Source of the DNA: Haplodiscus bocki
Taxonomy: Eukaryota
Length of the DNA stretch: 64,000 nt
Direction: 5' to 3'
Assembly (NCBI GenBank): GCA_965655095.1
Contig: OZ296657.1
Span: 34,224,001 to 34,288,000 of the forward strand
Shown: in pieces, positions 20,764-52,844 of the stretch
Layout of the letters: each line of letters opens with the position of its first letter
Numbering within the stretch: position 1 is the stretch's first letter
The notes under the pieces: generated by a model
Told to the model about the DNA's origin: nothing
Seen by the model: only the letters and a program-made list of their open reading frames with translations
Database searches by the model: none
Made by a program: the position numbers and the translations under genes

Positions 20764-22830
20764 GTATATGGAAAAAAAGTTTCTTGAAAATCTTTGACGA
20801 TGGCAGTTCCGAAAATTTGTTCGCCACAATAATTCAAAAAATATGCATTGAGGTTGGTTTTTGAGTTTCTATTAGTACTTGGTAAAATAATTGCTAATTA
20901 TCGATAATTGGGCCAAGACGCTTTTGTCGGAGCAACAATTTTGATGGCAGTCTGCTCTCATTTATTAAATTAACGGTTCTTTCTCTTTTAAATTTAGATG
21001 TTTTGTCCTGCTCGCTGTAAAGAATCTAAGATGGAGTTTAGAGTCGGGCTTTAACAAAGCTTATCTTTATAGTAGATAGGATGAAAGAATTAAATATGCC
21101 TGTAGTTTCATGGAAAATTAGCTCTTGGAAAGAACAAAGGATGCGATATGGATTTGAGAGATGCAATTAACTCTGGTTTTAGCCTGAAATTGTAAAGTTT
21201 TTTTTTAGGTTGGAACCAAAATCTGCTTCCAATGACGGTCACTGGGTGACCACTTATTGCCAGATGATTATTTGGCCTTGATAATATCTGATCAGCAACT
21301 GAATTATCTTTTCAAATGTCAAATATTCACCAAGTAAATCTACTCTAATTAAAAGTCGGCTTGGAAAAACAAGAAACACGAATATGCGTTGAGACATTTA
21401 ATCAGCAAACTAACCTTTGCTGAACTTGAGTTCGTTCACATTTTCAAAATTCCTTCATAGTTGATCTAACAAATCGCGATAATAGTATGTTTTGTAACGA
21501 ATTACATGTTACGTATGATTCCATAAAGAAGCCAATAGGTTTGTTAAACTGAAACTCTTTGCATTTAGGTTACCTCAAATTTTCGTTATAATACAATTTT
21601 CAGTTCCGATCTCACTAACAATCGAAATACAACCGTATATAAGGGAATGCCCACGGATGTCTAGTTTGATTGTTCACATCACAAATAGAGTATTTCCCTT
21701 GTTAATATCAATTTAGTGACAGCTTGTTTCTTTATGCTCTAATAGGTGGCCAAGAAGATCAGTTTTTAGGCTTTGGGCCGAGCTCAATTACCTTTGAACA
21801 TTTTTCATTTTTTAGATTGACTTTTCCCACTTTTTTTCACTGCATTTACCATGTACTTGCGGCTTCGACTATCCTGGTTTTTCGAGAACGTAAGAACTGA
21901 TTTGTTCTTGGGATCAGTGAGCTCTGCAATACTTAAAACAACTCACAAAATACCATTTAGCTAATGAAGAGTTTGGCTAAGTTATCTATCTGGGCAAATT
22001 TGACGGGATGTTATCTTTTGGATTTTTAGTTGGCGCATTTTAGAAGAAAAATTGCCCGACTTCTACGTTGCCTTTTTTCCGACCTCTGAAATCGAGGAAA
22101 TTCTACAAAAATTCTACAGTTTAGTATTGGAGTTTTAGAAAAGGCAACCCAACGCCCGGAAACGTAATACAGAAATTCCAAAAAAAACCCTGGCCCAAAA
22201 TCACAAAAATCGCAATACTATTTTTTTCCAAAACCAAGAATTGATAATTTTCGTGATACCTCTCTTAGATATGCTGAGACGTACGGACAGCACAGACTTG
22301 GGAAGTTCCCGGCTTGTTAGGCATTAAGCCGATAGGCTTAAGTCGTATAGATTTTACCTTTCTCTTCCTATCTTTCGCAAACCGATTCGTGACTGAGGTA
22401 TTTACCGATCGTAGTGACGCTGATTGAACTACTCATGGCGTAGAAGTTCTGAGTGGTAGCTTAGATGATCTATTTAATGATTTTTGTGCGAAAAATCTGT
22501 ACCTGTATTTGACAATTCAAAAATGTTTGAGTTCGCGTCGAAACTCTTGGTGACTAGTGGTTTGTCCAATGCTAATTCGGATGCTCGCTTTCTAGGGTTT
22601 TTGGTGAGTGACTGGAATAGTTTATTCCCAACTTTTAATGCAGAGCTTTTTAACTTGTTTTCAAAAAATCGAATGTTTTTTTTCGTACGTTATTCGTAAA
22701 AATTTCTTCCTAATGAGTCTGATCGAATTGGTTCCCTCCAGTGTAAATTTTGATACAAAATCTTTCGAAGCCCTCGATATTCAAGAACGGCCCAAGAAGC
22801 AATGAACTGTTGAGTTTGAGTAAATATATC

Positions 22831-23104
22831 GGACCAAGTGAACAATCCCCCCAGACTAACTAGCTATCTGTAGCTGATCAGTATTGAAACCGGTGGCTTG
22901 AGCACCACTACATCGTGCATATGAAAGCCCTCGGTACTCTTGGAGATAATGACTTGGTATCAATAATAACTAGTGATACTTTTAGTTGGATACCTCTTAC
23001 GATTATTCGTTTCTCTTGCTGCGATTACTTAAAAGTAACCTAGTGAATTATCTCCCCCCAAGCAGCATTTGGTGGGGGGGGGGGAGAGATTGTTCACTTG
23101 GTCC
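22831..23104. mobile_element. MITE-like element (~275 bp)
   Basis: Perfect 17-bp inverted repeat GGACCAAGTGAACAATC / GATTGTTCACTTGGTCC, followed inward by a C-run and a G-run. TA lies 2 bp outside each end (possible TSD). Confidence 0.7.
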
Positions 23105-24752
23105 ACTATCTAAAAGTTAATTTCATTTTCCAATGAGGATGAATCCCGTCGTTTTTCAAGTTATCAATCTGTGATAACAGGCTTCTTTACAAAACCTATT
23201 TCTGGTTCCCATAAACCAACTTTATTACTTACGTTAACATCGAATTTCTGAAGTGTTTTCTCGGAGCAACTAGTTATCATTTTCTCCATGATTATTAAAA
23301 TATGGAAAGACAATAACTGTCGCTCGGTGTCTTTTCACACTTTCTTACTGAATGGAAGAATATGTATGGAAACCCGCCTATGCTTAGTTTTTATTATCTT
23401 CCAAAGCTTGCATTTATTGACGTCATCAGATAGTCTAGTGCTCTAGTGTAAACGGTTAAAAATGGCCTCTTTGTGGCAGGTACTTCTTCATTTTCGCGTT
23501 GTTTACTGTCTGAAAACTTCTTAGACATTGAGCACTAAAAAGCGTAACCTGAAAAAACATGACTGACATATCAATCTTTTGAATGAGACAGGTACTTGTT
23601 TCAATTTGAATTTCGAACAAACTCGTGATTGACAGCTGATGTAGTATATCTGAAAGTCAGTCACATCTCCAATCAAAGTTTCAAATGTCTTTTCAGATCC
23701 GTGATCTCAACTGACAAATCAGGATGTGTTGCGAAGTTCTGCTTCGCCTCTGTGTTAATGTAAACTTGCACAAATATGATGGGGTTTTAACAAATTTGTA
23801 GGATTCTGAAAATTTAAATTACTCGGAAGTGTTAATAAAAGTCAAGTGTGATAATGTGTTTCGCGTATTAAACGCTTCATCAAAACTAACTGAAATTAAA
23901 TCATTAATTGAAGTTACCTTCAACTCAGAACATTCGGAAGTTAGCGCAATTGGCGATGCAAAAGCCAATGAATCACTTTGCGAGGCCTCGGATGAGTAAA
24001 CCCTGAAGTGTACCATATTTGCCAAGAATGTCCATAAAATAGATAAATGTGCGTGAGTTAACCTAATTTTATTTTCTGTTACTTCTGGGATCGTTTCTTC
24101 ACTACACAAATTCGATGTTGACAAGTGAACATGTAAAATATGAATTTTACAGGCTAAGGGTATAGTGTTCAAGATTGTTAAATAGTCCGTTTCAAATATG
24201 TTCGAATACATTATCTATCAAAACATATGACCTTCCCGAAGACTAATTGTCCGAATTATATAGTTTTCCTACTTCTCTCAAATGTGCCAACCGCAGAAGT
24301 TTGAAACTTGAATTTATCGCAATTTGGTATTTTCCGTCGTATATTATTACGAATGGAAAATCTTCACATTTCAATTGTCCGCTTTATCTTCTTTTAAATC
24401 TTTATGTATTTTTTATTTACCACAGTATTTGAGTTGCTCTGCTGCCCAGTTCTCTCAATGAGTGGTTCTTAATCATCTTGACCGATGCCCTCGATCTCAA
24501 ACGTAGATAGACACTGCGGTCGGTGTGCCAGCATTGAGGCGGGGAAGCGTGTTGTTTTTCACCGTAATATAGAACTTGGTTTAAAAAATGAGACTCGTCA
24601 TTATTATTGAAAACTATTTTTCTTCGCAAAAATGTAAGTCATCAAGATTTTGCTTATGTTAATAGATAATGTTGGCGCCCTGGTGTCAACGGTTAGACAA
24701 ATTGGACGCATGTGTCGTATATAACTGCGAGACATGTACTTGAAACATTTTC

Positions 24753-28110: not shown

Positions 28111-29673
28111 TTTGATTAGCGGCCGAAGAGCGCAACTATTTTTGTTATTTTGTCGTTATTTAAACTAATACTTTTCTAAAGCTGTTTTGCGATACAAAAC
28201 TGTTTGCGCAGGTGTATTAAAACTTTATTTTGAACTAAATTTTTTAAAAATTTAAATTTTGAAGAAACATACAATACGTCCTTCATTTCTTCCGACAGGT
28301 TCTCAATCGACCACAAATAACAAAGTTTTTTGGGACAACTAGTTGTTATATGTTCGATCAATCATTTGTACACCCCTTTGATGGAGAATATCGCAGTGCA
28401 AGTGCTCCTCTTGTTTAGTATTTTCGCATTTATAATCGGCAAAGTAATAATTTTATGTTTAGTTTCTTCCTACACTCATCTCGATGAAGTAGCGTATTCT
28501 CGGGAGTCCTACTAAAACACCAATTATTTGAAAAGATTATCATTCATTTTTCCAATCGTGTTTGTCCTTGAATAATAGTCGCAACTCAAATTCGGCACGA
28601 AAACAGATGTCTAGTAGGAGCCTTCGGTTGGGGCCAGAGGACAGCCCTACTGTTTGGTGAATTTCAGCCGCCGTGAGTTCCCAGCTGAAGCTTTCATTTT
28701 AACATTTTAAAAAATTCTTGACTTCTCTCTAATCTACCTATCTACCTTTACAATGCCACTGAAATGCGGCGACATATCAGACAGATACACAAAAATCAAA
28801 TTTAAGAGTTTAACAAATCATGGTGTTCCACGTGATTATTTGCTATCAGGCATCAAGTGAAACTGATAGCTATTGATTTTACTTTTTCCTCCTTCGGACT
28901 TCGCAAGCTTCTTCGTGTCTGCTCGAATGGGCGATGCTGATCGCAAAAGTGAACCGAAAAAATGTATGCTTATCTTTTAATTTTAATCATATCTACTTTT
29001 TTCGCTTCCCCCAAGCTAGATCGAGCGTCACTGCTCTCTTAGATTTTCAAGCACTTGTAGTCGGATTTTAGATTCAAGTATTCAGATTCATTTCTCAGCT
29101 TCGTCACATTCGTTCGCATCTTGTTTTCTGCTTTTCTGAAATGGTGAACATTCATCACTTCTCATTTTTGTTGATTCCTAAAGTGTTGAGAAATGGCTAC
29201 TATTCAGAGCGTAGAAATGGAGCAGCAGACCATTGAATGCAGTTGTTAGCGCTAAATGCGTTGCACCGTTGGCGCATTTGTTTTTCTCCCTTATATTATA
29301 TTTTGCACTTAGGGCGTTGAAGTTTCAAATCGCCAGTTTATTAGGGTCGCTTCGAGTTTTTCTTGTCGTGATCACAACTTGCAACTGTTCCGAGAGTTTG
29401 TTCATACCGTATTTTGTTACATAGGTTGTTTATGGCCCTGAAATTTTAAAGCAATTTTCTCGCATCGAATTGTTCTTCCTGGCCCGTAGAATTACATACG
29501 GAAAGTTGGATTTCAAAATCGTTCCTCGATGTGCTTTTGCGGCAAATCGCCCGATAGAGGCCTTTTTCCGGTGGAAAACATTTTTTCAAAATCATATCAC
29601 AACTGTTCAAGGAAAGTTTTGAAAAATCTTCTTGAAAACAATTTTTGTGATCGAGAAGTGGGCGATGTTGATA

Positions 29674-29900
29674 AGTAGTATAGGTTGGGGGGGGGGGGGT
29701 TACCGAACACTTTCGTGCTCCCTACAGTAATATAACAATTCGACGTTCCTATTCGATATCTGTGGAACAATTGTTACGGTCAAAGTTCAGTATCGCACTC
29801 TAGTTTCTTTGTTGACTGAACAAATATGAAGTTCGTATGAGCAAACTTCTATTCTAACAGTTAGCGAACTATATATTGAGGCAAAAAGTCATGAAATTTG
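29674..29900 (+). repeat. Polinton left terminal inverted repeat
   Basis: Matches the reverse complement of 40039-40266 with roughly 16 differences counted by eye (~92% identity). Contains a G13 tract. Confidence 0.95.
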
Positions 29901-30248
29901 CGTTTTTAAGTTCATGACGGAGTGTTCACTCTACTTCACCCATTTTTAGGGTTGGTAAAATTTTAATTACCTCAAATTTACAGTAGTACAGTACAGAAAA
30001 CGGAAAACTTTCAACATTTTACAAACGAGAGGTCTCTCAAACGAAGTACGAAGTTATCCTGTTTCGGTACTGTGAGACAAAAAACCGACAATTAAGCAGA
30101 ACCACCTCTTTGGTCAACCTAAAGTTTTAGACCAGGTTGACGCTCAGTACCGACTTCAAGGTGATCTCAGCTTGTTTTGGGGTTTTCAATTCGATAGAAA
30201 GCGTACAGAGGCATTAAACTTGAGGCAGCACTTGGGAATAGCGCAGAA

Positions 30249-30762
30249 ATGAAGTTTTGTCCTCAACAATATTTTCGAAAATTGGAAGTCCGTTGCGCAG
30301 GTACCCTAACATTGCGTCCCGAAAATCCTGTGCTTTCGGAAAATGAGGACTCCGACGAGAAACAAATGCTTGACGATGATGAGGACGAACTTTTTAGTGA
30401 TGATCGCAGCCTGGACTGTGCGTCTTCGTCAACATCGGTTGTTTCCATGCACTCAAAATTTACAATGGACAGTTACGGTTGGTTTTTTTACTTCTGCATC
30501 CCGGAATCTGTTTTGGAAAAGTTTTGAGAATGTTGTTGACTGTATTGACCTTTTTTTAGCTTCAATTGATCCCGGTTTTATTCCTCGCTCCGAGGACGAC
30601 ACTGCCGACATGGACACATCAGACGTTTGTGATTTCGAGAACCTAACAGACAATTATGAGAGTAGTGGAGATGAACAGCAGCGTCAAAACACAAACATCA
30701 ATTGTCCCTTTATTGACTTTGAAGCAATTGAAGAATCCATTACTTCTTCTACGCTTCAATAA
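30249..30762 (+). pseudogene. Acidic protein of unknown function (frameshifted); the only plus-strand gene in the element
   Basis: Two overlapping D/E-rich frames (ENEDSDEKQMLDDDEDELFSDD; SEDDTADMDTSDVCDFE...CPFIDFEAIEE) join with one frameshift near 30520. AATAAA follows the stop directly. Confidence 0.5.
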
Positions 30763-30776
30763 TAAAGCACTGGAGA

Positions 30777-31461
30777 TTAACTTATACTATTTCTGTGGCT
30801 CGAAAAGGTTCGAATAGATTTTTGAATTAACAGCCACTTTATTTTATACAAAAGGTTAGTATTACAGTGTTCATTGCAAAATAAAACCAAATCTATGTCC
30901 TGTAAGTTCTTTAGTGGTTGAAAAACAGACAAAATGAAACAATCGAAGTCGCAGTAACGTACAGATTTTTGTTCAATTTTTTGAATCAAATAATGCGCGA
31001 TGTAGAGGCAATAGAGACCACAAGTGTTTGAATGTGGAGACTGGATTGGTAATCTAACGTTTTTTTTTAATTTTTTTAATTTCTGTTTTATCCGAAATTT
31101 TTATCAAGTGATCAAAGAATAATTGATAGCGTCCTACGGGCTGGCCCAACGGATCCCAAACACAGAAAGAGAAACCTCTTGTCTCTCGACGGTTGTGTTG
31201 TTGTTGTTGATCATATAAAAGAAGCCAATGTACTCCAGCAGATCCAGCACTCGACGTGTTTACAATAAATTAAGTTTGAACATGTAGAATTGAATCGTGT
31301 TCGCTCTTCTCTTGTTTGTTTTGCTGCTTCATGAAATTTTGTCGATGTGGTGGCAAGGAGAAAAGCAATCCAAATATGTCGGCTGACCATACTCCGCCAA
31401 ATTTTGCCCTCGAAGAAGCACAACACGTTTGGGCTACTTCAGCTAGGGTTATGTTATCCAT
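30777..31461 (-). pseudogene. Adenain-type cysteine protease (Polinton PRO), disrupted
   Basis: MDN...KFGGVWSAD...*FIVNTSSAGSAGVHWLLL...VWDPLG, then after a frameshift in the A-rich tract at ~31060-31080, PIQSPHSNTCGLYCLY. Catalytic H, D, Q and C are all present. Confidence 0.9.
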
Positions 31462-32823
31462 TGATCAAACTGTTTTTGGAAATGTTGCGCATGGCGTCAA
31501 TAAAGATTTGGCTGAAGCGTTCACCAACTAAAAATAATTCTACGGGATGAGTCAGGGCTTCTGTAAAACTCAACTTCAATGTAATACCTGCTCCTGTAAG
31601 CTCTGGAAATAAGGTGAGGGCTTTACCGGCCTCTCTCGACGAAGTCAAATCGAATACTAGAAGTTAGTGATTTTTTTCAAAATCACTCATTTCTATACCG
31701 TTGCCACCTTTTGTGAAACCAAGAGCACAAATTGTGTTGTAAAACAAACGAGTATTTTTGGTCGTGTCAATTGGTTTTCCGGCAATTGGAACGCCATTGC
31801 CCCGCTGAATTTCAATTTACTCAATTGAAACTTTTTGTATTGGAAAGTTGTGTTTTCAATTGTTGATCCGCGAAAAAACTTGTTTCTGACCATAGAAAGA
31901 GTTAATCTTCGCACAGGTTCGGTGCCGAAAATATTTTCCTTGACAAAACAATTTTGTCCAGCCTGAATGATGAAACTTTTGTTTAGACTTTCAATATATG
32001 GATAAACTGCTGGGCTTTTTGTCAAGGCTCTTTCAATGCTGACTTTGACAGCATCGGACAAGACAACTTTGTTGACAAACAAAGAAGCTCTTTCAATTAC
32101 TACTGCGTACGGTGTCTGGTCAACTCGTTTGATGTCTGCTGCCTCCCACGTTCCCACCCTATCGACTGCGCAATTGTTTGGTGATCGGTAAAAGCGCAAA
32201 TGGAGTGTAACACCCGGCAGCAAAAGCCGTTCACAGTCCAAAAAGTCTACGTGTGGTGCTCCATACAACTCAAGATTGAATTGTTCGCCCTTTCTGAAAT
32301 CGTTCAGCTCCTTCTCTTTTGCTTTTGCATTTGCCTTGTCATTCGCTCTATACCTGTAACCTTGACAGGGGGCCCACGTTCGTTTACTGGCAATGTCTGT
32401 GGTCAATTCGGTTTCAATAAATGCTAAGTGATGATAGTTGTTGTTGCTGCTAGAAATCAACTTCCCATTCAGGAACATCTCTACGTGTGAAAACAAGGAA
32501 TGTAACGTGTTGTTTGCGAATGTCAGCTCTACATCTGCTGGTTTGACTTCTTCTGTGGCATCAGGTTGGTATAGGCACATTTCTAGAGATAGGCAAATGC
32601 GGTTCAAATCGATACAGTTCTTGTTTTCTGTGGTTACAAAAAAATCCAACTGGGGTCCGCGGCAGCCCACATGGGGAAAAACTTCTTGATCAAAAGAGCC
32701 TTCGTAATTAATCAAAACACTTGGTCTCTCGAAAAAGTCAAGCGCACTATGTGTCACCGGATTGGCAATCTCTGTTGATCGACTGAATAAAGCTGTTGCA
32801 TTGTTGTTGTTGCTCGCTGCCAT
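31454..32823 (-). pseudogene. Double-jelly-roll major capsid protein (Polinton MCP), disrupted
   Basis: SALDFFERP...QLDFFV...IDLNRICL, NNTLHSLFSHVEMFLNGKLIS and LLLPGVTLHLRFYR. After a frameshift at ~31817: GNGVPIAG...H*LLVFDLTS...ITLKLSFTEAL...IFIDAMRNI. Confidence 0.9.
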
Positions 32824-32858
32824 CGTGCTAACTCCGGTAAATCCTTCTTATTATACCA

Positions 32859-33416
32859 TCAACTAAAGTTTATTTTGGATAATATGTCAGACCGACTTCT
32901 CTTGGCGGGACTCTTTTTCAGAATGCCTTCTTTTGGGGGAGAAGGGTGGTGTTGGTGGGGCACGACAACATGGACTGGTGAAGTTTTGACACTTGTTGAA
33001 CGTTTTCTAGCCGGGGGTGTCCGCCCAGCCGGCCGCCCGCAGCGTTTCGCGCGCCCGCCCGCTGCTCCGCCGGTACCGGCGACGACCGCTCCGGCGCCAG
33101 CCTCGGCGACGCGACGCGTCCCGGTAGCCTTGGCAATGGTTTTGGTAGCTGAATTTTTCAAAACATCTCGAAAAGCTTTGCGAGTTCTCTTCTTGCCAGA
33201 AACAATGTTCGCCAATTCGGGAACAAAGGAAGAGACCAAGTTTCTGCCAAACTCTTTGGACACGGGCAAGACATTTTTTTTCATCAAAGGCATCGCCACT
33301 CGGCCCATTCGCATGGCAAACGCACCCATTCCACCAGAGCCAAACGGTCGCGCTGGTCCGTGGATTGTTGATGGCTGATGTTGCTGTCGAATTTGAAAAT
33401 CATAATGAGCATCCAT
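32859..33416 (-). CDS. Basic putative virion core protein (185 aa)
   Basis: Intact ORF between penton and MCP. RPFGSGGMGAF...RVAMPLMKK...IVSGKK followed by a K/R-rich tail ending SDIL matches the pattern of Polinton core-like proteins found at this position. Confidence 0.7.
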   Translation of the reverse strand: MDAHYDFQIRQQHQPSTIHGPARPFGSGGMGAFAMRMGRVAMPLMKKNVLPVSKEFGRNLVSSFVPELANIVSGKKRTRKAFRDVLKNSATKTIAKATGTRRVAEAGAGAVVAGTGGAAGGRAKRCGRPAGRTPPARKRSTSVKTSPVHVVVPHQHHPSPPKEGILKKSPAKRSRSDILSKINFS

Positions 33417-33589
33417 TTTTGAGAATTAGTAGTAATAGTAGTAGTAAATTTAGTAGCAGGAGCAGTAACAAGTAACACCTTTTTGCGACTGTTTTATTGA
33501 TTAGCTCATCAAAAGAATGATGATGCTCTTGGTACTAACACGTTTTGGTTGGCGACGACAAATATGGTGTTGGAAGAGTGATTTTTAGC

Positions 33590-34531
33590 CTATTGCTCTA
33601 TGTGTTGTCGAAAGTGTAAAGTGAGGTTAGTCCGACCGCCACTGAGAAACGGAACCAATTGACCAGTTTCGTTGCGAAGCGATACTGAAATAGACTCTAT
33701 GCTAGACTTTACGATGCGGCGCCATTGAAGGTTGTTAAAGGTCCGATAATTCTGCTGTTGATGGTTCCCAGTAGTCGATCGTTCTGTCAGCGGAATGGCT
33801 CTCAGCAAGGCAGTACGGCTATCTCCCAAGATTTCATTTTGCACCAGATCGCAATACAGAAAAATTGTGTTGCAGCCACCACTGAGGTCTGTTGGAAACT
33901 TTCCCACGTTCTTTGATATAGCTTGCCTATTGTTGCCTTCTTTTGATTTGTCGTTTCCAGAGCAGTCAATGAGTGTTTTCATGCCCAAAACGTTCTGTAA
34001 GTCTTGGGATATGGTTTCCAAAAACATACACTCTTGATTGTTGCCTTCATAGTATACTTTCAGAGCTTCTGATGGGGCATCCAGCTTCCACGAGAGGTGA
34101 AACTTGTCGCCCACGGTTCTTACGAACATTTTGTTGCAAATTGAAAGCAAAATTTGATCAACGCTAAGATAGACACCGGGTTTGATATTTGTAATTGTTT
34201 CGACAAACGTCTCTTGAACAGATCGTATTGGTGGCTGGTACATTGTAACCATTCCGTAGGGCCTTTCGCTTAGTTTTCTTTTTCGATTTTCCGAGCTATC
34301 GCCACCGCCATAATTTTGTGATTTTTCCGCTGCGACGCGATACTTGAACTGGCCGTATGTTATGTTTTGACTTGCCGCGGGCCATGCAATTTCGACCAGT
34401 GCCACTTCCCAAAAACCAGATAGGTTAAGTTGTTGAGGTAAAAGAGTTGTGAACTGGGACAATGTGTTTTCGGGAAATGTGGTCATAGATGCGTTGGATA
34501 CCAAATTTATACTGAATTCCCTCAATGACAT
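33590..34531 (-). CDS. Minor capsid protein (penton, single jelly roll), 313 aa
   Basis: FSINLVSNAS...FPENTLSQFTTLLP...WEVALVEIAWP at the N-terminus. IFLYCDLV...GDSRTALLRAIP...IESISVSLRNETGQLVPF...TLHFR at the C-terminus. Intact ORF. Confidence 0.9.
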   Translation of the reverse strand: MSLREFSINLVSNASMTTFPENTLSQFTTLLPQQLNLSGFWEVALVEIAWPAASQNITYGQFKYRVAAEKSQNYGGGDSSENRKRKLSERPYGMVTMYQPPIRSVQETFVETITNIKPGVYLSVDQILLSICNKMFVRTVGDKFHLSWKLDAPSEALKVYYEGNNQECMFLETISQDLQNVLGMKTLIDCSGNDKSKEGNNRQAISKNVGKFPTDLSGGCNTIFLYCDLVQNEILGDSRTALLRAIPLTERSTTGNHQQQNYRTFNNLQWRRIVKSSIESISVSLRNETGQLVPFLSGGRTNLTLHFRQHIEQ

Positions 34532-34565
34532 TTGATTCGTGTTTTAGTGTAGAACAAATTGGAAA

Positions 34566-35787
34566 CTAATTTTCGAAGGGAGTCAATTCGGCTTCGTAAA
34601 ATTTGCCCTGAATCAACTGATTGTTGGCGTCTTTAATGCTGTATGTGGGCGGGTTCCGTGTTTGAACTGCGGCAATGGTTAAAACCTCCTCTGTAAACTG
34701 AATTCGGTAACCCCGATGAAATGTTTCAATTTTTCGTTTTATTCTCACTTGCTGGCCCATTTTGTATTTGGGCGGGCGAATTTGATTGCAACACTGAAGT
34801 GAAAGCAAATAAGGAACATCATTTTTTCCAAAGTCTTTTGGCGCTAACTTTGTGATCCGATTCACTCTGCAATTAATCACATTTAAGAATTGCTGCAAAT
34901 TTTCAATATACGTATCTGTGTTGTTTTCGTGCAGAAATTTGAAAATTATTGCCTTCAAAGATCGGATGTTTCGTTCCGCAAACGCCGATTTGGTTTCGCT
35001 ATGTGTTGAATACAGACCGATGTCATTTTCTCGGCAAAAATGAGAAAATTCGCCGGCGAACTCTAGACCTTTATCCACCCAAATCTTCTCCGGTTTCGGC
35101 AGAGTATTTGACTTGGACCGACAAAACATCGGTTTCATCATCATCATTGTCTTCGAACTGACTCTTTTTGAACGAAGCGATTCCATGATTTTCTGCAATG
35201 CATCTTCACATTCTGCAGCAGTTTTTTTTCAATGGTAACGCCCAAACAAAGCGGCTCAGTGTGTCTACCGCAACAAAAATAAAATTGATTCCATGGTTGT
35301 ATCGAGACGATTTTTGCATATCTGCCAAATCAATGGACCAAATTTCATTTAATCGAAAACTCTGAACCTTCAATCTAGGAAGGCGGTTTCTGGTTTGTTT
35401 AAATTTGGTGTAAGTCTCGCTGCGATTTAGATAATTGTCAACTTGTCGGTAACTACAATTCGACGTTTTCTTTAGAGCATTCCTACCGGCAAAAGCAGCC
35501 GGATTGTTACAAGATGTATAAAATGTATGTATTCTGCTGTAGGCTAAGGACTCCGCTGTGGGGTTGACAATTTTCCGTGTCACCGCACATTTTGAGCAGA
35601 AAAAGTCTGCGGATTTTTTGTAGTCATCGACGCGTTTAAGACCACTGCAGGTGAAGTATACCCAACCACAAATGTTGCACCATATCGAAGGTTTATGACG
35701 TGAACCTTTGCCCAACAACTTGGCGCAATTGCCACAGTGGTATTTTGGTTTGACTTTTGAGTTCCCACCACTTTTTCTGTGCCTCAT
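34566..35787 (-). pseudogene. RVE (retroviral-type) integrase with N-terminal PHD-like zinc finger; one frameshift
   Basis: DDE triad: WSIDLADM, IWVDKGLEF, SAFAERNIRSLK. Also VDTLSRFVWALPLK and a C-terminal GKFYEAEL. The frameshift is in an A8 run at 35222-35229. Residues 18-67 form CxxC...CxxC-W-x-(H>Y)xxC...CxxC. Confidence 0.93.
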
Positions 35788-35866
35788 TATTGTGTCCTCG
35801 AAACAATCAACTGTTTAAAAAAGAATGCCTTGTGGTAAATGAATTGCCAACAAGTATCTGATTCGC

Positions 35867-36531
35867 TCAGTATAGTCGCAGCCACTTCGCTGTAGAACAA
35901 CCTCCAATTTCCTCTTTGTCATTGCTGTCATACGCCGCCACTTCTGTTGCTACGCGCCTTGCATGTGTGTTTGCGAGTAAAAAGTTTGGCAGTTTCAACC
36001 GTTTCACTAGATCTAGCGTTCCTTCGTTCAAGTTTTTTGTGGTTGTTTGTAAGTCATTCAAAAAGTCAAAAACCGTCAGACCGAGATCTCGGTCATGAAG
36101 CAACAGTCGACCGGAGTTACCATCGATCGATACGACACTGCATTGATCGACCTTCTGAAGGATTTGCCTTGCCCGCTCAACTTTGCCCCCAGAAAGTCCC
36201 GAGGACAATAAATCGAGGACTATTTTGTCAGTCTTCGCTATGGTTTTGGTTCGGTCGGCTAGCGTGTCATCGGGAGTTGCGTCTTTGCGACTTTGCGCCT
36301 GTGTAAGTCTGGAATTCAAGGTTAATTGGGTGCAAAGTTTTTTGTCGTCGGTCTCGGAATTACTCTTGTCTTGCGTATCAATTTGAGAGAGAGTTCCTGA
36401 TGTCTTCTGATTTAGTGCCTTGTACCAGTGTGTCCTTTTATTCGGAACCCATTTTTTTCGTGGTTGAATGAATTCCTGGGGGAAAGGAGAGACGTGTATT
36501 CGTCCAACGTTATCAGCACAATTTCTTTCAT
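35867..36531 (-). pseudogene. Conserved Polinton protein of unknown function upstream of the integrase (disrupted)
   Basis: Starts MKEIVLITLDEYTSLL one base after the preceding stop, followed by a stop and a frameshift. Continues as RARQILQKV...SIDGNSGRLLL...VFDFLNDLQ and ends KWLRLY. Confidence 0.6.
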
Positions 36532-36532
36532 G

Positions 36533-36868
36533 CTACTGTTTGATGTCGAGTCGTTTCCTCAAATGATTGAGAACAGATGGCTCGATGAGTTTCAGAAGTT
36601 TGATACCATTCCTGGTAGCTAGAAGTTGACGCTTTCTCCTAATCCTACATTTCTTTTTACAAAGAGTTTCAATATTGGACTGATGCCTCTTCAGTTTTAT
36701 CACCGATACGTTCGCAGTCATTCTAATTCCACCATGTACAACATTAAACAGACAGTTACAGAAAAACTTAATCAGCTCAGTGGGACAGTGTAAAAGAAAA
36801 GACTGTTTCAAAATTGGTTTAATTTTACTGAAAAGCTCACGAGTATAAAAGTCGCGTTGACTCATCAT
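36533..36868 (-). CDS. Small basic Polinton protein (111 aa)
   Basis: LIKFFCNCLFNVVHGGI...KLKRHQSNIETLCKKK...RKRQLL...GIKLLKLIEPSV resembles the conserved basic protein found downstream of Polinton ATPases. Confidence 0.65.
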   Translation of the reverse strand: MMSQRDFYTRELFSKIKPILKQSFLLHCPTELIKFFCNCLFNVVHGGIRMTANVSVIKLKRHQSNIETLCKKKCRIRRKRQLLATRNGIKLLKLIEPSVLNHLRKRLDIKQ

Positions 36869-37538
36869 TCAATATCTCTTTTGTTCGAGTTGTAGAGATA
36901 TAAAAAACACTATGCTGGGAGCCACTACAGTTTGAACAGTATTTCAGTTTTTGATCTGTTTGTGGATCCAAATCTATCAATAAATGACCAAAAGGTTTTC
37001 GCGTAGCTCTTTTATAGGCTTCTAAAAGGAGTTTTCTGTCCCCCAGTTGTCTACCCAACACTCCAATTTGTTCGACATCTCGGGGACTTTTGAAACGAAT
37101 CATCTGCGTTACGTTGAGATCAATCGTTTTCGAAGTTTTGGCGGGTTGCTAAATATTATGTCTCAAAGTCATCAGATGTATATTTCGATGTCTTCCAGCA
37201 ACAACCAAGTTGAGAAACATTCCATCTTCACAAGCATCTTGATACAGGTCGTCAATAACTACTAGTGTTCTTAGCTTCTCGGCTTCGCTCCTGTCCACTG
37301 CTGCCCATTGAAGTTCTTGATCAAACTCAATTGGTAGTTTTTCCTGCATGCATCCCAACAAAAGCCATTCGTAATCAGATTGAAAATGCTTATAAAAGTA
37401 CAGAATTTTCTCGAAGCAAGGTCTGAATATGGTCTTTTGATTGAGAATTATTTGAGAAACCAGTTTAGTTTTTCCGCATCCACCAGGGCCAATGATCGAT
37501 ATGAAGCAATGTGGATCGGTATTAATTTTTTTGTTCAT
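36837..37538 (-). pseudogene. A32/FtsK-HerA-type genome packaging ATPase with one premature stop
   Basis: Walker A GPGGCGKT, Walker B LVVIDDL, and GRHRNI. A single in-frame TAG at 37149-37151 is followed in the same frame by QPAKTSKTIDLNVTQMIRFKSPRDVEQIGVLGRQL...PFGHLLIDL. Confidence 0.93.
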
Positions 37539-37828
37539 GGTTTTGGGCCAGGAATGATGTATCCAATGCAAGCCGATAGTAATGCTAGGACTCCGGAGTG
37601 ATAGTTAGTTTGAGAACTGAAAGTCAAGAAACCAATACTGAATGAAACCACGACAATAATGATTAAAGAGTGTAATGTCAAAATGAAAAACGCTCGGTTG
37701 CATGTAATTCTTTTGAGGCAGCATAAATTAGCTTCGAAGGGGGATCTTTCTTACTTTTGCTGATCAAAAATAACGTTTTCATTGTTGATCGGATCAGGGA
37801 AATCGTCGGTGCTGACGCGCGCTGTCAT
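37535..37828 (-). pseudogene. Small two-transmembrane protein (97 codons, one internal stop); absent from the ORF track
   Basis: MTARVSTDD...QQK*ERSPFEANLCCLKRITCNRAFFILTLHSLIIIVVVSFSIGFLTFSSQTNYHSGVLALLSACIGYIIPGPKP. Its start and stop overlap both neighbouring genes as ATGA. Confidence 0.75.
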
Positions 37829-38076
37829 ACTTGTTGATCAAGGCTAGACTGATAACCCGCCAAATATAATAAAACACTGAGAATTTGGTGAAGCCGTTGA
37901 AGTTCAGTCAGATCCAAATTGATTCGATTTAGGTTGTATCGATTTTTCGAAGTGGAAAGTGTTGCCTGCTCTAAACAGACCAAAGTTGTTTTGGGATTCA
38001 CTCGACCAGTGAGGTTTGTAGTATTGGAAATGGGAATGGAGATGGATGTCTCGACGTAAGAACGCACGACTGACAT
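37825..38076 (-). CDS. Hypothetical 83-aa protein, possibly PC4-like nucleic-acid-binding
   Basis: Intact ORF in the co-directional gene array; its stop overlaps the next ATG. Beta-rich start followed by RINLDLTELQRL. The fold assignment is weak. Confidence 0.5.
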   Translation of the reverse strand: MSVVRSYVETSISIPISNTTNLTGRVNPKTTLVCLEQATLSTSKNRYNLNRINLDLTELQRLHQILSVLLYLAGYQSSLDQQV

Positions 38077-38100
38077 CTGTGGAAGCTGAAGTAAAAATGA

Positions 38101-38517
38101 TTAAACCGAAAACTCTTGGTAAATCGAGTTCTTGTAGAGTTTCAGTACAATCCAATAGGTAAGGCCAGTGATATGTCCGAGAAGCATACTGTTTGCGAAA
38201 AATGGTTTCTCGGATAGTGCGTAAACGTAACCGGGACAAACATTGTAAGTACTTCTCATGAACCCAAACGCATCATGGAAAAATGCATGAAGCCGAAATA
38301 TTTTAGAGCATTTGAAAAAGTGATCCAATTTGCTTTCACCGGGGCCTATGAGACCTCCGAACTCGGCGAATTTATTGACGAACTGCAAATTTATCTCGTT
38401 GTTCATACTGTAACAGACCGCTAAAAATGCATTTTTGCATCGAGTGTTCTTGGGAAACAGATATGTTATCATTTTTAGGGTATCATCTAATTCTCGCGGA
38501 GTTACAATAGTGTGCAT
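38101..38517 (-). CDS. Parvovirus-type phospholipase A2-like protein (138 aa)
   Basis: GGLIGPGES resembles the YxGPG calcium loop, followed at typical spacing by RLHAFFHDAFG, resembling HDxxY. Intact ORF. Confidence 0.65.
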   Translation of the reverse strand: MHTIVTPRELDDTLKMITYLFPKNTRCKNAFLAVCYSMNNEINLQFVNKFAEFGGLIGPGESKLDHFFKCSKIFRLHAFFHDAFGFMRSTYNVCPGYVYALSEKPFFANSMLLGHITGLTYWIVLKLYKNSIYQEFSV

Positions 38518-38575
38518 GATGATCTAGTTTAGGTGAAAAGCAAATGTTTTGAATGAAATTTCAATTGAAAATGGT

Positions 38576-39419
38576 TTAAGGAAATTGAGTATTTTCGTCA
38601 AAAGCGAATAAGGTTGAATGATAGTTCAAATCGTCTCTATCAAATAGTGGAATACTAGAGTTTTGCGCTTCAAAACATTCAAGGCATTGGCACTGAGCAT
38701 TGGAACAACCTAAATTCACTTTCAGCATGTTATGATGTGAAGCCTCCATTGTCCCAAAACCGCGCGTTAGAATGTCGATAAAATCTACAACCGAATCTTT
38801 GAAAACTGCGTCAGAGTTTTGTAGTTCCTGTAGCTTCTTACACAGGTGAGCAACTTTTTCTCCGTCGTCTATCCCACTGAATGGTGAATAGCATTCTCGT
38901 TGGTACTCCCAAATAACTTTAAATTGACAACCCAAATCGATCGTTGCCTGAGATGTGAAAATCTTTCTCAGCCTCTCACCATAAATTCGAAGAGTGTTTG
39001 ATGATTTCGTCATTTCCACCTTCAAAGTTTTCAGGATACGTGACGTTGCACAGCATGACTTTACAATCCTTTTGTCCACTTTTATTCCCGAGGGTTATTG
39101 CTAGTGTGTTTTTAAAATACTTTTCGGCTCCAACAAAACTCTTGATGTAGAACAGCAAATGAAAATGCGTTTCCGCTATCTCTGAGCATATATCTTCACA
39201 GCCATATGCATGAGGTCTTATAGTGTATTCAAAGTTTCTCGAAGCTGAGAGCGTTTTGAAGAACTCAGTCAGCGTTCTTGGTAATTCGATTCCATTCGTT
39301 TCAGCATATGTTTTTGCTATCTTTGAAGGTGGTGGAGTTGGGTCTGCTTCAAAATCCTCTTCGCAGTAAAATGTCAGATAATAAAAGTTGTTGGGAACTT
39401 CACGGAAGATACTTGTCAT
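38576..39419 (-). pseudogene. ~280-aa protein with HUH-endonuclease-like motifs (two overlapping ORFs, probable single frameshift)
   Basis: FYYLTF (motif I-like) and ETHFHLLF (HUH + hydrophobic) lie in 38976-39419. The second frame (38576-39079) has a Cys cluster CSNAQCQCLEC. No helicase Walker A motif. Confidence 0.5.
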
Positions 39420-40038
39420 GGCGGAGGCGTTCGACTAAATGACTACTCACCGCTACCTAATTTATCAGCTAAAACTTTTACTCTGTTACGCAATCTTTCT
39501 TTTCCTGATTTTTGGAATTTTCCATAAGTGTAGTCACCTCAAGTGAACCTTCGAACATTCAAAATACCTTCTTCAAGGTTTACCGATTTCAATAATATTT
39601 GTAAAGTAAGTTTCCTATTCTTTGGAGCAGGAACTACTTCCTAGGAAAATTCCAATCGGCTTCTATGAACACTGTACTGCTGTTTTCCTTTTCAGGTCTT
39701 TGATAGTTAGCTTCTCCGTTGACGCCTCAATTTCAACATATGTCTAATACTCTCTTTATTTAACTTCTGCACATTTACTTCTTCAATTCCTTCTGTTACA
39801 AGCTACTGTGGCATAAAAGTTGGTATAGTTTTATGTTTTAACTACGAGATTTGGGATGAAATCAAATTTCATAAATGAACAGTGTTTCGATTCAAAAGGG
39901 TAGTGAAGCGCAGGTGGTTGTGAAGAGCCTCGATCCTAGGAACTGTGTGCTCTTGCTGCAGGCTTAAGCACTTGTGCCACACTGCCTGTTCAGAGGGATG
40001 TATTCTTTTGGTTTTCTTGAAAAATCGCGAATTTAGGT

Positions 40039-40266
40039 CAAACTTCATGACTTTTCGCCACACTATGTAGATGGCTAAATGTTAGAATAGAAGTTTGCTC
40101 TTACGAACTTCATATTTGTTCAGTCAACAAAGAAACTAAAGTGCGATAGTGAACTTTGACCGTGAAATTGTTCCACAGATATCGAATAGGAACATCGAAT
40201 TGCTATAATACTGTAGGGAGCACGAAAGTGTTCGGTAACCCCCCCCCCCCCCCAACCTATACTACT
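40039..40266 (-). repeat. Polinton right terminal inverted repeat
   Basis: Reverse complement of the left TIR; contains a C15 tract and ends CCTATACTACT followed by the TSD TTGATA. Confidence 0.95.
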
Positions 40267-41439
40267 TTGATATCGTGTTTAGAGATATTTTATCAAACCA
40301 ATAGTTTTCTTGGAAGAACCGGGCTCTTGTTGCGAGTTTTATACTGTCTTGTAATTTGAATTTCGAGAAATTGTGAGTGGAGTATTTGTTCAAAAGTGGC
40401 GTTTTCATAGCAATCAGTCGGAATACAGCCATCTGATATGCCCTTCTAAAACTTCGCATGGTCATTTTTGCTTGCCTTTTGGGGTCATTGTATTAGTGAC
40501 TTTGTTGCCCCTTATCCAGTACAATTGCGAAGCTTCATCTGTCCAATTGAATTTTTTCCGCAGAGCAGCAAAAACTTTTCAGTACTATCGTAGCAAACGA
40601 TTTCGATTTCTTCTCACAAAGTGAAGAATGTTTCTGCGGCGTTCTGGTGAAAGTGTTCCGTCATCGTCTGAGTTTCTTGGTACTCACACCTTTGAGGAGT
40701 TTTTGGTTGTTTTTCTTCCGGCAGAATATCTCAACATCACTATTTCGGCAAATATGCGTTAATTTGCTGCAAATTTATTCGATATGTTTCCGGTACGTTT
40801 TGTGAATGTATTGCATAATTTTGGAATGATTTCAGCTTTTTTTTCGAAAAATTTTCATTTGTGTTGGTTCGATTTATCAGAGAATGAAATCCTGTTAAGT
40901 GTACCACCTTTGCAGGGCTACGCTTTGCCTCTATATTACACTTGCGACTAGCGAGTGGTATAGAATAGAATCGTCTACCATTTTAACCCGATCCTTTCAA
41001 ACTTTTTATCGGCTTTTCAGCTGTTCACTAGTGCGCTAATGAAATATTAAATGGGAATTTCAGTTAATTTGCTTGTTCAAGTTGCCTGGCGAGCGCGCGA
41101 TTGAAAAGTAATCAAACCGTTAACCAATGAACCAATATTATATATTGAATAATTGCTGATATTTGACGGTAAATTTTCTTCTTGTTTGCTTTTCTGAAAC
41201 AATTTGCTTCATACGCATCTTTCCGTTGCTAAAAAATGTGCAATTTAGAGAATCTACAGGGAAGCAGGTACACAAAACTTCTTAGACTGGTAGAGTGAAA
41301 TTCGAAAGATGTTTACTTGCGTGTCTTTTGGATATCTGTCTTGCTTGGATTGTGGCCTTCTAGTCCTCTTTCGAAATTCCGCAATAATAGACAACCTGCG
41401 GAGATACGCATTTGCTTTTTCAGATTTCTCATACTTTAC

Positions 41440-42130: not shown

Positions 42131-45100
42131 GATACCAACAACCTCATCAAAACTAGTCCATTTTTCTTTATTGTATGTCCTTTCACCAGCTCGAAAAACG
42201 GTTGTGTCCTGAATTGACAAAAAGGGTGCCGAGGTTATATGGCAGAATATGTTTCAATTTGAAAATTGATGCTTAAATCAAAATATTATATCAATTTCTG
42301 TGAATTTAGCTGGTAATTTCATCTTGCTTGACAAATGTTGTGGCTTTAATAGTCCTGTGACTCACATGGGCCGAGTTTCAGGTGACTGGTGTAACAGCCG
42401 CTTTTCCAAAACCTGAAACTTTACGAAAACTTTCGAACCTCTAAAGCTTGTACTGCCATTGTCGTTTTTGTGTAGCTTAACATAAAGATCTTGTTCTCCA
42501 TTCTGAAGTCAAACTTGTACTACGATAATTACCCTGTTTGTAAAATTTCTACTGGTTAAATTGAAGTCTTGTTATTCTTAGTCAATCTTTTCACTTGAGC
42601 TGTTACCGGTTTGTTTTTCTGTACGGTATTTTGATGTACTCATATTTCGGTACAGAAACAAAAAATATTGCTCTAATATGGGCGGCGAGAAGGAATCCTC
42701 ACAAGGCTTTCCACCTAAAAATGACGCAGTCAGTGATGGCAAAGGGGCCTTAAAGAAAGGGCCCTGAAATTGTTGGTGGCAATAAGCGAGTACGGGGAAA
42801 AGGGGAAAGCGAGACCATTCTGCAGAACAGGGATATTGGTGGAATTTTTGAGAAAACATTTTCTCAAGAAATCTTTTATTTATGACCTAGAATGGTTCCA
42901 AGAAAAAAACATCGATGCTCAGTTTTGCAACGCAGGGACCCAAAATGACGTTTCATTGCTGTATTTCCTTCAGAATGACTAATTTTTACAACATTTTTTA
43001 CGAAGTTTCAACTATAGTGTTTTTTTGCCCAAAATTATTGCAGTTAACTAGTTATGTTTTCAATGATTAGTGTGAGAAATTGGTATTTCATCTAAAATTA
43101 TGCGGATTATCTTCAATCTCATTTCATCTCATAGTTGTGTTTAATGTTTTGCCATGTCTTCATTAACATCTGTTGCGTTGGTACAACCTATGCCGTGATA
43201 ACTGTAAACATCGTCTCTCTATAATCTTGGTTACTAATATTTATTGGATCGTTGAGTTTGTCGGTTTCGCGATATAATTATTGAAGTTTTAGCAACCCAC
43301 GGTGCTCACCAAAATTCTCAAAACTTATCTATCACCAGGTTCTCCAAAGTTGACAGGACTCTTTGATACATAAAATTATGAAATCTAGTGTAATATATTG
43401 ACCACAAAGTATCTCGCCGCTTTAGAAATAATATGCCTGATGCTGAATTTAGTTCCATCTGAATTCTCCATCGTTAGGTTTATGCTATTTCTAATCGATT
43501 ATCATAACGTTTTAGTTTGACTTGAAACGGCAACGCAGATATCGGTTATCAAAGTTGGCTCAGATAGAAGTAAATTTGCAAGTCAAATCTTGCAATGAAT
43601 TATAACTTGAAACCAATAACTAATTTGCAATTGTGACCAAACTGATTCTCCTTCGAAGGGCAATTCGAAATTCTCAAGTTTAAATATTTCATCATATTTT
43701 ATAATTTCGTGTTCTCAACGACTTGGCTGTGATGCTGAAATTGTTCGCTTAAAATTTGATTAGAACATTTCTGCGGTCTAACGGTTAATGTGTCTTGAAA
43801 GTCTTCATCTGGTTTTATAGAAAAACATCAAAGTAATTGCATTAAAGGTTAGTATCTTGTTATTGTTTGAATTTCAGGCTATTTAAATTCTGTATTTGGA
43901 TTTTCCAGGAAGTAAACGCGTTATTTGTGAAATTTGCATTACTGGGATCTGTTTTCTAGGTCAAAATGCTTAAGATTTCAAAATTTGCTCAAGTCTGCAT
44001 ACATATACGCACGTGAATTGAGCATTGTGCATCGGCTTAATTTCTCTACGGTTGAACTAAAACATCTTTGCTCTTGCCAGGCAAAATGCTGTCCATCTAG
44101 GGTTTGTTTCGTTGAATCATATTCTGTCTCGAAACTTATTCACGGTTTCGTTTCATCTTTTAAGAAACTTTCTGTAAATGGTCCTTTTCGAGCACCTATC
44201 TTATGTTTTATTCCTTGAAATCACGTTGCTTTCTCATTCGGCATTTTAAAGAAGTGTTACGCTTTTTATTCCGTTTTCTGAAATTGTGGTAAACCAGGGT
44301 TTCCTTATGTTGAATGTAAGTTTCAGATATATTCTATGTAGAATTACGATGCGATTGCACTAAAAATTCTGAATTTTTAAATTTTTTCAAATATTAGCGT
44401 GTAACAGATTACCTTAGCTACATTTTATTCTTTAAGATGTTCCGAAGTTGAATTCTTCAAACATTTCGAACTTTTTTTAAACGACGTTTTCTCTGAAGCA
44501 AAACGTGTTTTACAACGCTATTAGCGAATGAAGTTAGGTACAGTAGTGAAAATAAACGCATCAATGCTCAAATTCGAATTCAATGTCCTTCAGAAACTAT
44601 TTTATCGAGTATGCAATCGTTTTCGTTGAAACTTTACGGTCAAAATTGCAAAAGTTAGGAATAGCTATTTTTCGACAATTTCTGCTCATATTAGAATTTT
44701 TTTCCAGTTTTTGATCAACTTGCAAAATTATTTCTTGACAAATTTTACACTGAAACTCCCTTGATTGCACTGAAACCATTGATATATTTTTTGAATCAAA
44801 AAACTAATTTGAAATGGTAGAATAGCGAACTCCCAAAATAGGGATTTCTGAATTTATATGAATCAACATAGGATTTTGAAATTTGCATACTTGAAAACCT
44901 CCATTTTGTAAAAACTGTAACTTATATCGGCGGCTTCAAGGAATTGTATTGGCGAGAAAAGTTTGGTTAAAGTCAATCTGTTACACGCTTAAAATGGGTA
45001 AAAGTGGGAAAATAATGGAGATCGTTTAAAGTAGACTAATAAAGTGAGCAATCTAAATTAGCAAATAATTAGCATTTAATTTAGGTCTATTTTGTGTGTG

Positions 45101-52334: not shown

Positions 52335-52844
52335 TCTGCTTTCTTATGGATGCTAAGGAATTCGATGCACTTTATATGGCTGTTAAGTCTCCCAAATTTT
52401 TGAATTTTTGACAATTACTGGTGGATAGCCAAAATTGGCAGAAATTCATGAGGTGCAAAATCGTCACCTGGTCCTTTCTGCCGGGTAATCAAATGGCAGT
52501 TAATAGAGAGTACCTGCAAGTGAATGCATGTATTGTAGTACAAGCAAGAAACATTACATGCAGTGAAAACTTTATGGAACTCGCTCAAGAGTATTAACCG
52601 AGTTCGATAAACTTGTCCACTGCATGTAACATTGTTAGTTATATAAAACGTATGTTCAGTTGCAATTACTCTAATAACCGGCATTCGCTTATTCACCCGG
52701 TAGAAATGACCAGGTTCCGATTCTGTACCTCATGCTTTACCGCCAATTTCGGATATCCACCAGTAATTGTCAAAATTTCAAAAATTTGAGTTACTTAGAA
52801 CCACAGAAGTTGCTTTCAGTTATTTAGCATCCATAGTAAGCAGA
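52335..52844. repeat. 510-bp imperfect palindrome (foldback-like)
   Basis: The arms are reverse complements along their length, e.g. CAAATTTTTGAATTTTTGACAATTACTGGTGGATAGCC vs GGATATCCACCAGTAATTGTCAAAATTTCAAAAATTTG. Centre near 52590 (GAACTCG-loop-CGAGTTC). Confidence 0.85.

Follow-up and report, generated by a model that had tools for sequence, protein, structure and literature searches.

The window analysed here is a 64,000-nt stretch of the genome of Haplodiscus bocki (assembly GCA_965655095.1, contig OZ296657.1, positions 34,224,001 to 34,288,000 of the forward strand), and the element under study is a Polinton-type integrant in it which lacks the protein-primed DNA polymerase pPolB. Its features are listed in Table 1, with positions counted from the first letter of the window. 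An earlier note, made from the sequence alone, had placed terminal inverted repeats (TIRs) and a perfect 6-bp target-site duplication (TSD) around 10.6 kb, and direct reading bears out the ends, the TSD and the span. The inverted ends are 91-100% complementary in three blocks (29674-29900 against 40039-40266), and no other long-range inverted repeat of comparable size is found in the window. The claim about the TIRs holds in that inverted ends exist, but the 228-bp repeat is not the TIR of the family (about 110 bp), and the ends are of different origin: positions ~114-226 of the left end are 95-99% like four ends of a palindromic element, P, as against 90% like the element's own right end. According to this comparison, the two ends derive from different elements. 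The junction between the left flank and the left end is also present in the contigs of a second sample (two records, 0 differences). Throughout the text, D refers to the 10.6-kb layout of the window copy, B to a hybrid of 11.8-11.9 kb, A to the helper family and P to the family of palindromes; contig labels (C1, C2, etc.) are our own.

Table 1. Features of the polymerase-less element, in window positions (aa, amino acids; ORF, open reading frame; X and Y, subfamilies of the helper family A)
Feature	Position	Strand	Remarks
Element	29674-40266		10,593 bp; AGTAGT start, ACTACT end
Target-site duplication TTGATA, both sides	29668..29673 and 40267..40272		perfect 6-bp match
Left terminus (AGTAGT, G-run)	29674..29900	+	copy of the helper's right end, brought by P; first ~110 bp are the family TIR
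P-derived 624-bp segment, non-coding	29674..30297	+	from the terminus of the gene-less 14-kb palindrome P
P/helper junction	30297..30298		no exact microhomology; replaces the helper's left 6.2 kb
Subfamily X segment	30298..33060		59 X, 2 Y and 1 other at 62 diagnostic sites
Subfamily Y segment	33113..40266		165 Y, 0 X and 2 other at 167 diagnostic sites
Acidic low-complexity frames, doubtful gene	30249..30762	+	no stable family length; the 30249 start lies inside P-derived DNA
Adenain-like cysteine protease	30777..31438	-	broken near 31060
Double jelly-roll major capsid protein	31454..32823	-	frameshift near 31810; 376 of 455 aa open
Basic 185-aa protein	32859..33416	-	full length
Putative minor capsid protein (penton), 313 aa	33590..34531	-	full length; identity by position, one gene from the major capsid protein
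PHD-like finger and rve integrase	34566..35787	-	split by a T-run frameshift near 35220
220-aa family ORF	35867..36531	-	broken near 36380
111-aa ORF	36533..36868	-	full length
A32/FtsK-type packaging ATPase	36837..37538	-	in-frame stop near 37150
Three small family ORFs	37535..38517	-	97 aa (stop near 37750); 83 aa and 138 aa, full length
282-aa family ORF, no family assigned	38576..39419	-	frameshift near 39020
Right terminus of the helper family (ACTACT end)	40039..40266	-	

Twelve genes of family-stable length tile the minus strand of the element. The earlier note had counted 13 and had left unassigned gaps of ~350 bp (left) and ~620 bp (right); the gaps are as claimed, but the thirteenth gene, the acidic ORF, has no stable length and starts in foreign DNA. 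The virion module, which had been called complete, is so in its gene content, but seven of the 12 conserved genes are broken in the window copy (those for the protease, the major capsid protein, the integrase and the ATPase, and the 220-aa, 97-aa and 282-aa ORFs), while five are full length when measured against the family copies. Breaks at 31330, 36450 and 36830 had been considered common to nearly all copies; this was rejected, as they are private changes of the reference copy.

Since the window copy is broken, gene identities were assessed on a natural family copy. In this copy, the protease matches Peptidase_C5 (E 1.1e-4, above the cut-off), the integrase matches rve (PF00665; E 5.7e-7, 30.2 bits, slightly below the cut-off of 32.6), and the packaging ATPase gives a weak match to Pox_A32 (for the frame of the window copy, E 5e-4, below the cut-off). 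The structural model of the capsid protein (52 sequences, pLDDT 84.9) matches the major capsid proteins (MCPs) of iridovirus, PBCV-1, Sputnik and mavirus (best E 1.3e-15, TM 0.57); these matches come from a fold search alone, as a PDB sequence search with the MCP profile gave no match. The basic 185-aa protein may have a core or DNA-condensing role, to judge by its composition and position. The putative penton, a single jelly-roll protein in Polintons, has no Pfam match, and the Atlas gives only unnamed eukaryotic clusters for it; its position fits the gene order of Polintons, in which the penton is encoded near the MCP (PMC4028283). For the 282-aa ORF, the Atlas gave no usable match.

The absence of pPolB, also claimed by the note, was confirmed by a tblastn search with the family's own 1,314-residue frame, which gave no match in the element (E ≤ 1) or in the window (E ≤ 0.1), and by three family-B polymerase motifs, which found no match in six frames. 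Likewise, no helicase, primase or Rep protein was detected by Pfam among 19 frames of the element. The whole element aligns either to the helper or to P, and it holds no gene beyond the helper's set.

The relatives of the element were sought in the host assembly (1.5 Gb in 6,626 contigs). When a search was made across the left junction (best 40 of 150 candidates scored), six copies crossed the junction and more than 30 matched only from 30298 onward, several of them lying about 0.8 kb from a match to PF03175. A total of 41 loci were compared, of which 32 carry pPolB, two have the B form, five have the D layout and two are devoid of the left part; a sixth D copy ends at a contig end (C3639). 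In the 32 pPolB-bearing loci, the polymerase gene adjoins on the left the position that corresponds to 30298. The helpers with both ends measure 15.1-16.9 kb (mostly 16.0-16.2 kb), and 1,314 codons make up their pPolB frame. They align with the right 10 kb of the element at 93-96.5% identity, and the left 6.2 kb missing from D consist of pPolB and two small ORFs (146 and 110 aa). The helper pPolB frame also contains N-terminal C2H2 zinc fingers and an Endonuclease VII domain. In the host assembly as a whole, PF03175 gives 98 matches (best 91 of 10,957 candidates scored), a number which indicates that many further Polinton families are present in this genome.

These helpers bear on one of the options raised in the earlier note, namely that the element has a second segment as its partner in a bipartite system, or comes from a lineage that starts replication with a different initiator (Tlr- or PLV-like, PLV standing for Polinton-like virus). 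The element does recall Tlr elements (PMC4028283) in being bounded, integrase-bearing and polymerase-free. However, a search with the helper's left module (35 of 35 candidates scored) gave 34 loci, of which 32 keep at least 78% of the right module and the other two are one-ended fragments, so that none is the bounded pPolB-only segment, with the same TIR, that the note had proposed to look for. Together with the alignment of the whole element to helper or P, the lack of any pPolB trace in P and the lack of a replication gene among the 19 frames, this leaves the option with virtually no probability, and it is refuted within the assembly, barring an unassembled pPolB-only linear DNA. The possibility of a new replication system falls with it; the same genome contains at least 32 close relatives with pPolB.

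The left 624 bp of the element have another source. Beyond base ~113 they are absent from all 32 helper copies, and over their whole length they are 91-96% identical to both ends of eight copies of P. This family consists of gene-less palindromes of about 14 kb (13-17 kb) with Polinton ends (for example, at C3:58.69-58.71 Mb), in which the first 226 bp correspond to the right end of helper A (93% identity). A perfect 6-bp direct repeat flanks both ends in all eight copies examined. In seven of the eight the palindrome is almost complete, its arms measuring 5.9-7.2 kb; the left arm of the eighth is short. At the centre, six copies have an assembly gap, and a single full palindrome is free of one. 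In the gapped copies the arms are nearly identical (99.4-99.8%), but this may be an effect of assembly, which counts against relying on it. A coding role of P was considered and rejected: its longest frame has 113 codons (table 1, one arm), and nothing telling appears under tables 4, 5, 9 and 6. Among 14 indels fixed between P subgroups, ten are of 1-2 bp, one more lies at the edge, and three are of 9 bp. No trace of pPolB was found in P, which does contain degenerate internal repeats, and an Rfam search on it gave three matches, all far below the gathering score.

The centre of P is a GC-rich T-shaped hairpin, with a predicted energy of -69 kcal/mol for 117 nt and a z-score that mostly reflects the palindrome itself. 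The hairpin has two ears in five copies and recalls a parvoviral terminus. In the genome, 142 first-look candidates for this hairpin were found. Two P loci show particular arrangements. At C11:58.53-58.59 Mb, seven head-to-tail repeats of about 7 kb represent a partly deleted P, each of them opening with the same TSD hexamer, an arrangement that points to local tandem amplification after insertion. At C2:47.75-47.76 Mb, a gap-free P copy shows 96% inverted symmetry which runs at least 1.4 kb into both flanks; this symmetry, a point against taking the copy at face value, may come from a hairpin-triggered inverted duplication or be an assembly artefact.

In D, base 624 of P is joined to the helper about 65 bp past the pPolB stop. 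Among the best 40 of 48 candidates scored for this junction, six matches span it (C9, C10 twice, C12, C307 and C3639), all with identical junction sequence. Three of these copies have perfect TSDs (TTGATA, AATATG and ACTATG), one has a TSD with one mismatch, one is unmatched and one is cut by the contig end. Since the same junction is found in six copies at different sites, the polymerase-less form spread after the loss. Concerning individual copies, the flanking hexamers of the D copy at C10:84.86-84.87 Mb differ, and it is possibly an ectopic recombinant or the product of a flank deletion, while the D copy on C307 is followed by three tandem 1.84-kb repeats of the right end plus flank, which are possibly assembly-derived.

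The recurrence of the junction decides against a one-off dead deletion or an assembly collapse. The decay of the window copy, with seven of 12 genes broken, is what a dead, neutrally evolving derivative would show. Nevertheless, the same junction occurs in six copies on five contigs with different flanks, and its left part beyond base ~113 is in none of the 32 helpers. This explanation is refuted by the junction copies at several loci, and we regard it as hardly credible. The note had also offered a deletion derivative as one option, had expected multiple insertions with different TSDs and the same layout if the element were helper-dependent or bipartite, and had considered its proposal untenable if close relatives carried pPolB and this were the only copy with the junction. 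Close relatives do carry pPolB at the predicted place, but the left end has been replaced by foreign DNA, and the expected insertions exist as the six copies, so that the uniqueness of the junction is false. The option of a helper-dependent form that borrows pPolB fits these copies; its description as an undescribed system goes too far, as mobile polB-less polintons have been reported (10.1101/2025.02.07.637071).

A second hybrid, B, is represented by two copies with perfect and different TSDs (best 40 of 71 candidates scored for its junction). In B, bases 1-1763 of P are joined, again without exact microhomology, to pPolB residues 1272-1311, the last ~40 codons of the gene, a remnant that reads as a direct fossil of polymerase loss. 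A tree built from the first 624 bp places D beside the P copy at C2:91.53 Mb (support 0.97) and B beside another P copy (0.99), and 16 fixed differences separate the P tips of D and B. As each tip has a P copy of its own as its neighbour in the tree, the two joins were likely independent. The same observation argues against the candidate origin of D as B minus 1.3 kb.

A chromosomal origin of these hybrids has to be considered here, in which P inserted in or beside a helper, an internal deletion fused the two, and the composite was then mobilised in trans. P is abundant, as the 142 hairpin candidates suggest, and junctions without exact microhomology are those expected after end-joining. However, an insertion and a deletion of more than 12 kb would be required twice, near the same helper position and from two P subfamilies, and no P-in-helper composite is found among the 41 loci. 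Consequently, this route is considered very unlikely.

The helper-derived part of the window copy is itself a mosaic. In a tree of the common 10 kb, which included 37 of the 41 loci (the partial loci C1:76.2, C5:67.2, C9:60.4 and C2:74.1 were left out, and the contig-cut D copy on C3639 is also outside it), a star-like clade X (support 1.0) contains, besides both B copies, the remaining four D copies and two copies with pPolB. The window copy groups instead with subfamily Y, whose other members all bear pPolB. According to 229 diagnostic sites, the window copy changes from X to Y between 33060 and 33113. Its X part diverges by 1.49% and its Y part by 1.29% from the own subfamily, as compared with 3.6% from the other one. 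The equal age of both parts, together with the intact TSD, suggests that the crossover most likely took place before integration, although a 7-kb conversion soon after insertion could conceivably have given the same result. Another D copy bears an 8-site Y tract. On these alignments, the window copy combines DNA from three sources: the tip of P, helper subfamily X and helper subfamily Y.

Selection was evaluated from the same data. Between X and Y, 54 non-synonymous and 74 synonymous differences are fixed, for an omega of 0.20, whereas the private changes show N:S values of 344:114 (0.83) in the four D copies, 189:68 (0.77) in B, 537:192 (0.77) in the Y helpers and 70:19 (1.02) in the window copy; fixed and D-private changes differ with a Fisher p of 1e-11. 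No break is common to all D copies, and those found in several copies lie in homopolymer runs or occur also in helpers. The lack of a common break and the neutral private changes indicate that the founder spread with working genes and that each copy decayed afterwards.

These results bear on whether the element is a true satellite virus, which would need its own capsid protein, ATPase, protease and integrase, would borrow only pPolB, and would have its right module under selection. Several observations agree with it: two probably independent joins took place at the pPolB 3' end with every downstream gene kept, no inactivating break is common to all D copies, and six of the eight clade X copies in the tree are polymerase-less. 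On the other hand, the star-like tree and the only three D-specific fixed substitutions do not point to a long history of its own, the pN/pS of private changes is 0.83-1.02, and the helpers supply the same genes at 93-97% identity. Moreover, the same pattern would be produced by a break hotspot where pPolB converges with the opposite-strand genes, or by a minimum packaging size. Nothing here shows selection keeping the capsid or integrase genes of D, and a satellite virus is judged unlikely.

The reading that we prefer, with a probability of roughly 0.8, is that the element is a non-autonomous Polinton hybrid, composed of the right 10 kb of the 16.2-kb pPolB-bearing family and a 624-bp tip of P, which was likely multiplied through the helper's pPolB acting in trans. 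In adenovirus-type replication, short terminal repeats act in protein-primed initiation. On this model, any molecule with two family ends could be copied by the helper pPolB and then integrated. P would exist as a 7-kb duplex closed by a hairpin, and copying through this hairpin would yield a 14-kb palindrome with two origins; the displaced strand of P would snap back, making a second priming step unnecessary. If P, helper X and helper Y were copied together in the same cells, a polymerase or repair step could join a P end to a helper just past pPolB, leaving a protein-priming origin at both ends. The helper pPolB would replicate this hybrid, which would then be inserted, with a 6-bp TSD, by an rve integrase encoded either by itself or by the helper. 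B and D, being shorter than the helper, would ride on helper replication, and a later homologous crossover, before integration, would have given the window copy its Y-type right 7.2 kb. The capsid, ATPase, protease and integrase genes would most likely be passengers, kept because of the short time elapsed.

Several points weigh against this hybrid origin with helper-driven spread. Mobilisation in trans is deduced from copy number and the X/Y crossover, not observed. Among the second-sample contigs listed, no piece bridges 30297/30298; some frame breaks sit in homopolymer runs and are possible assembly errors; the copy numbers of the hybrids are lower bounds, as they come from the best 40 of 48 and the best 40 of 71 junction candidates; and one D copy has no matching TSD. 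In both hybrids the break falls in a stretch of about 200 bp at the pPolB 3' end and leaves the right module intact in its extent, and a neutral passenger status does not explain this common break position or the retention of the module. In addition, the three substitutions fixed in the D lineage are too few to gauge selection during its spread.

The satellite P seems not to be bound to a single helper family. Two older palindromes (P2) have the inner 4.5 kb and the hairpin of P (about 80% identity) with other termini. A search with the P2 terminus scored the best 40 of 595 candidates, and the seven loci examined comprised four Polintons of 14.6-15.0 kb (A2) and three more palindromes. A2 and A are 66-69% identical in the capsid protein and 45-52% identical in pPolB. 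In all four A2 loci the satellite terminus is the pPolB-distal end of the helper, as it is for P and A. The non-coding cores of P and P2 are 70-82% alike, the long coding blocks of A and A2 are 64-69% alike, and the termini of A and A2 do not align. As the cores are more alike than the helper coding blocks, transfer of the core between helpers appears likelier than co-divergence, and the occurrence of one core with the ends of two distant Polinton families suggests helper switching. One locus, at C4:57.70-57.71 Mb, is a gap-free palindrome with arms that are 70-80% alike, belong to two P2 subtypes and lie within one TSD, with a short duplication at the left end; a fold-back read artefact cannot explain arms from two subtypes in one TSD.

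Taken further, these data would describe a three-tier system, to which we give an even chance: autonomous helpers; a long-lived, gene-less satellite of about 7 kb closed by the T-shaped hairpin, 14 kb when integrated, which has moved between two distant helper families by adopting their pPolB-distal ends as its origin; and hybrids such as the window element, resembling defective-interfering genomes, which keep the virion module. The clean crossovers would then be fossil traces of Polintons that replicated together, outside the chromosome, in the germ line of an animal. The replication of animal Polintons, including their replication as free linear DNA, is still debated, and this family offers a worked case. 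It points to the terminus as the cis signal needed, two copies of the right end apparently being sufficient, and to an exchange of DNA between helper and dependants before integration, with a hairpin satellite that appears to change helper by swapping its terminus. The natural molecules to expect in tissue are a 7-kb hairpin duplex, a 14-kb palindrome and a 10.6-kb hybrid. It also follows that any Polinton found without a polymerase in an assembly is best compared with the rest of that genome before it is taken for a new lineage.

Outside the element, the window contains an intron-free 288-codon frame (11627-12493, minus strand), which looks like a short-chain dehydrogenase by a putative Gly-rich motif. 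A frame at 20056-20568 (plus strand), just inside one arm of a pair of 41-bp inverted repeats 4.9 kb apart (15962-20928), presumably resembles the C-terminal part of a hAT-type transposase. Small inverted-repeat elements similar to miniature inverted-repeat transposable elements (MITEs) lie at 52384-52797, 22826-23109 and 44382-45003, and four degenerate repeats with a spacing of 173-181 bp at 55135-55705.

Regarding known systems, Kapitonov and Jurka reportedly described in 2006 non-autonomous Polintons with the termini of autonomous families, which were thought to move in trans. Likewise, the termini of the element studied here recur in an autonomous family of its host genome. The 16.2-kb helper belongs to the canonical Polintons/Mavericks (Eupolintoviridae, adintoviruses; PMC8502044, PMC4028283, PMC8097293, PMC6431247), and the window element resembles them in its AGT-type ends, 6-bp TSD, rve integrase, double jelly-roll capsid protein, putative penton one gene from the MCP, ATPase and adenain-like protease. 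It differs in lacking pPolB, which defines the group, in the mixed origin of its ends and in its length, 10.6 kb against 15-25 kb (PMC6431247). In these elements, the short end repeats, with a motif of the (AGT)2//(ACT)2 type, serve protein-primed initiation, the rve integrase leaves 6-bp TSDs, and no particles have been seen so far for animal Polintons (PMC8097293); the adintovirus-type virion genes are reported to be restricted to animals (PMC8502044), and by these genes the host would be placed among the animals.

Tlr elements and Polinton-like viruses (PMC4028283, PMC5499653) also have a capsid module without pPolB. However, Tlr elements are an old lineage with an SF1 helicase in the place of pPolB (PMC4028283), while the window element, which shares 93-97% identity with copies that bear pPolB, carries no gene in its stead. 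A close parallel is that of the polB-less polintons of insects (butterflies; Igolkina et al., 10.1101/2025.02.07.637071), which are mobile beside polB-bearing kin. As in D, they are TIR-bounded, keep virion genes and were amplified after the loss of polB, with highly similar polB-bearing copies nearby. In insects, the loss goes with LINE or Gypsy cargo, and the mode of movement was left open by the authors. In contrast, in H. bocki the polymerase end was swapped for the terminus of a palindromic satellite belonging to the same family, and crossovers with two helper subfamilies have been mapped. Non-autonomous copies were reported absent for the Polintons of the anole (PMC3014272), and non-autonomous Polintons are not mentioned in the accessible parts of PMC10748475, PMC12166617 and 10.1101/2024.01.15.575659. 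A palindromic Polinton satellite, a satellite-helper hybrid, the T-hairpin and helper switching were not found described in the literature consulted, which consisted mostly of titles and the beginnings of abstracts, with subscription papers and Repbase outside its scope.

Finally, the hybrid likely behaves, by analogy, like a defective-interfering genome of its helper. Defective-interfering and snap-back genomes, such as the snapback genomes of adeno-associated virus (AAV; PMC8235507), also depend on a helper and keep the replication origins. P itself resembles a snap-back genome, but it is integrated with TSDs, and its core, instead of being a piece of the helper, is a non-coding sequence in its own right that occurs with two helper families; what appears to be new here, from the comparison of cores and termini, is that this non-coding core is also combined with the ends of another Polinton family, distant from the first.

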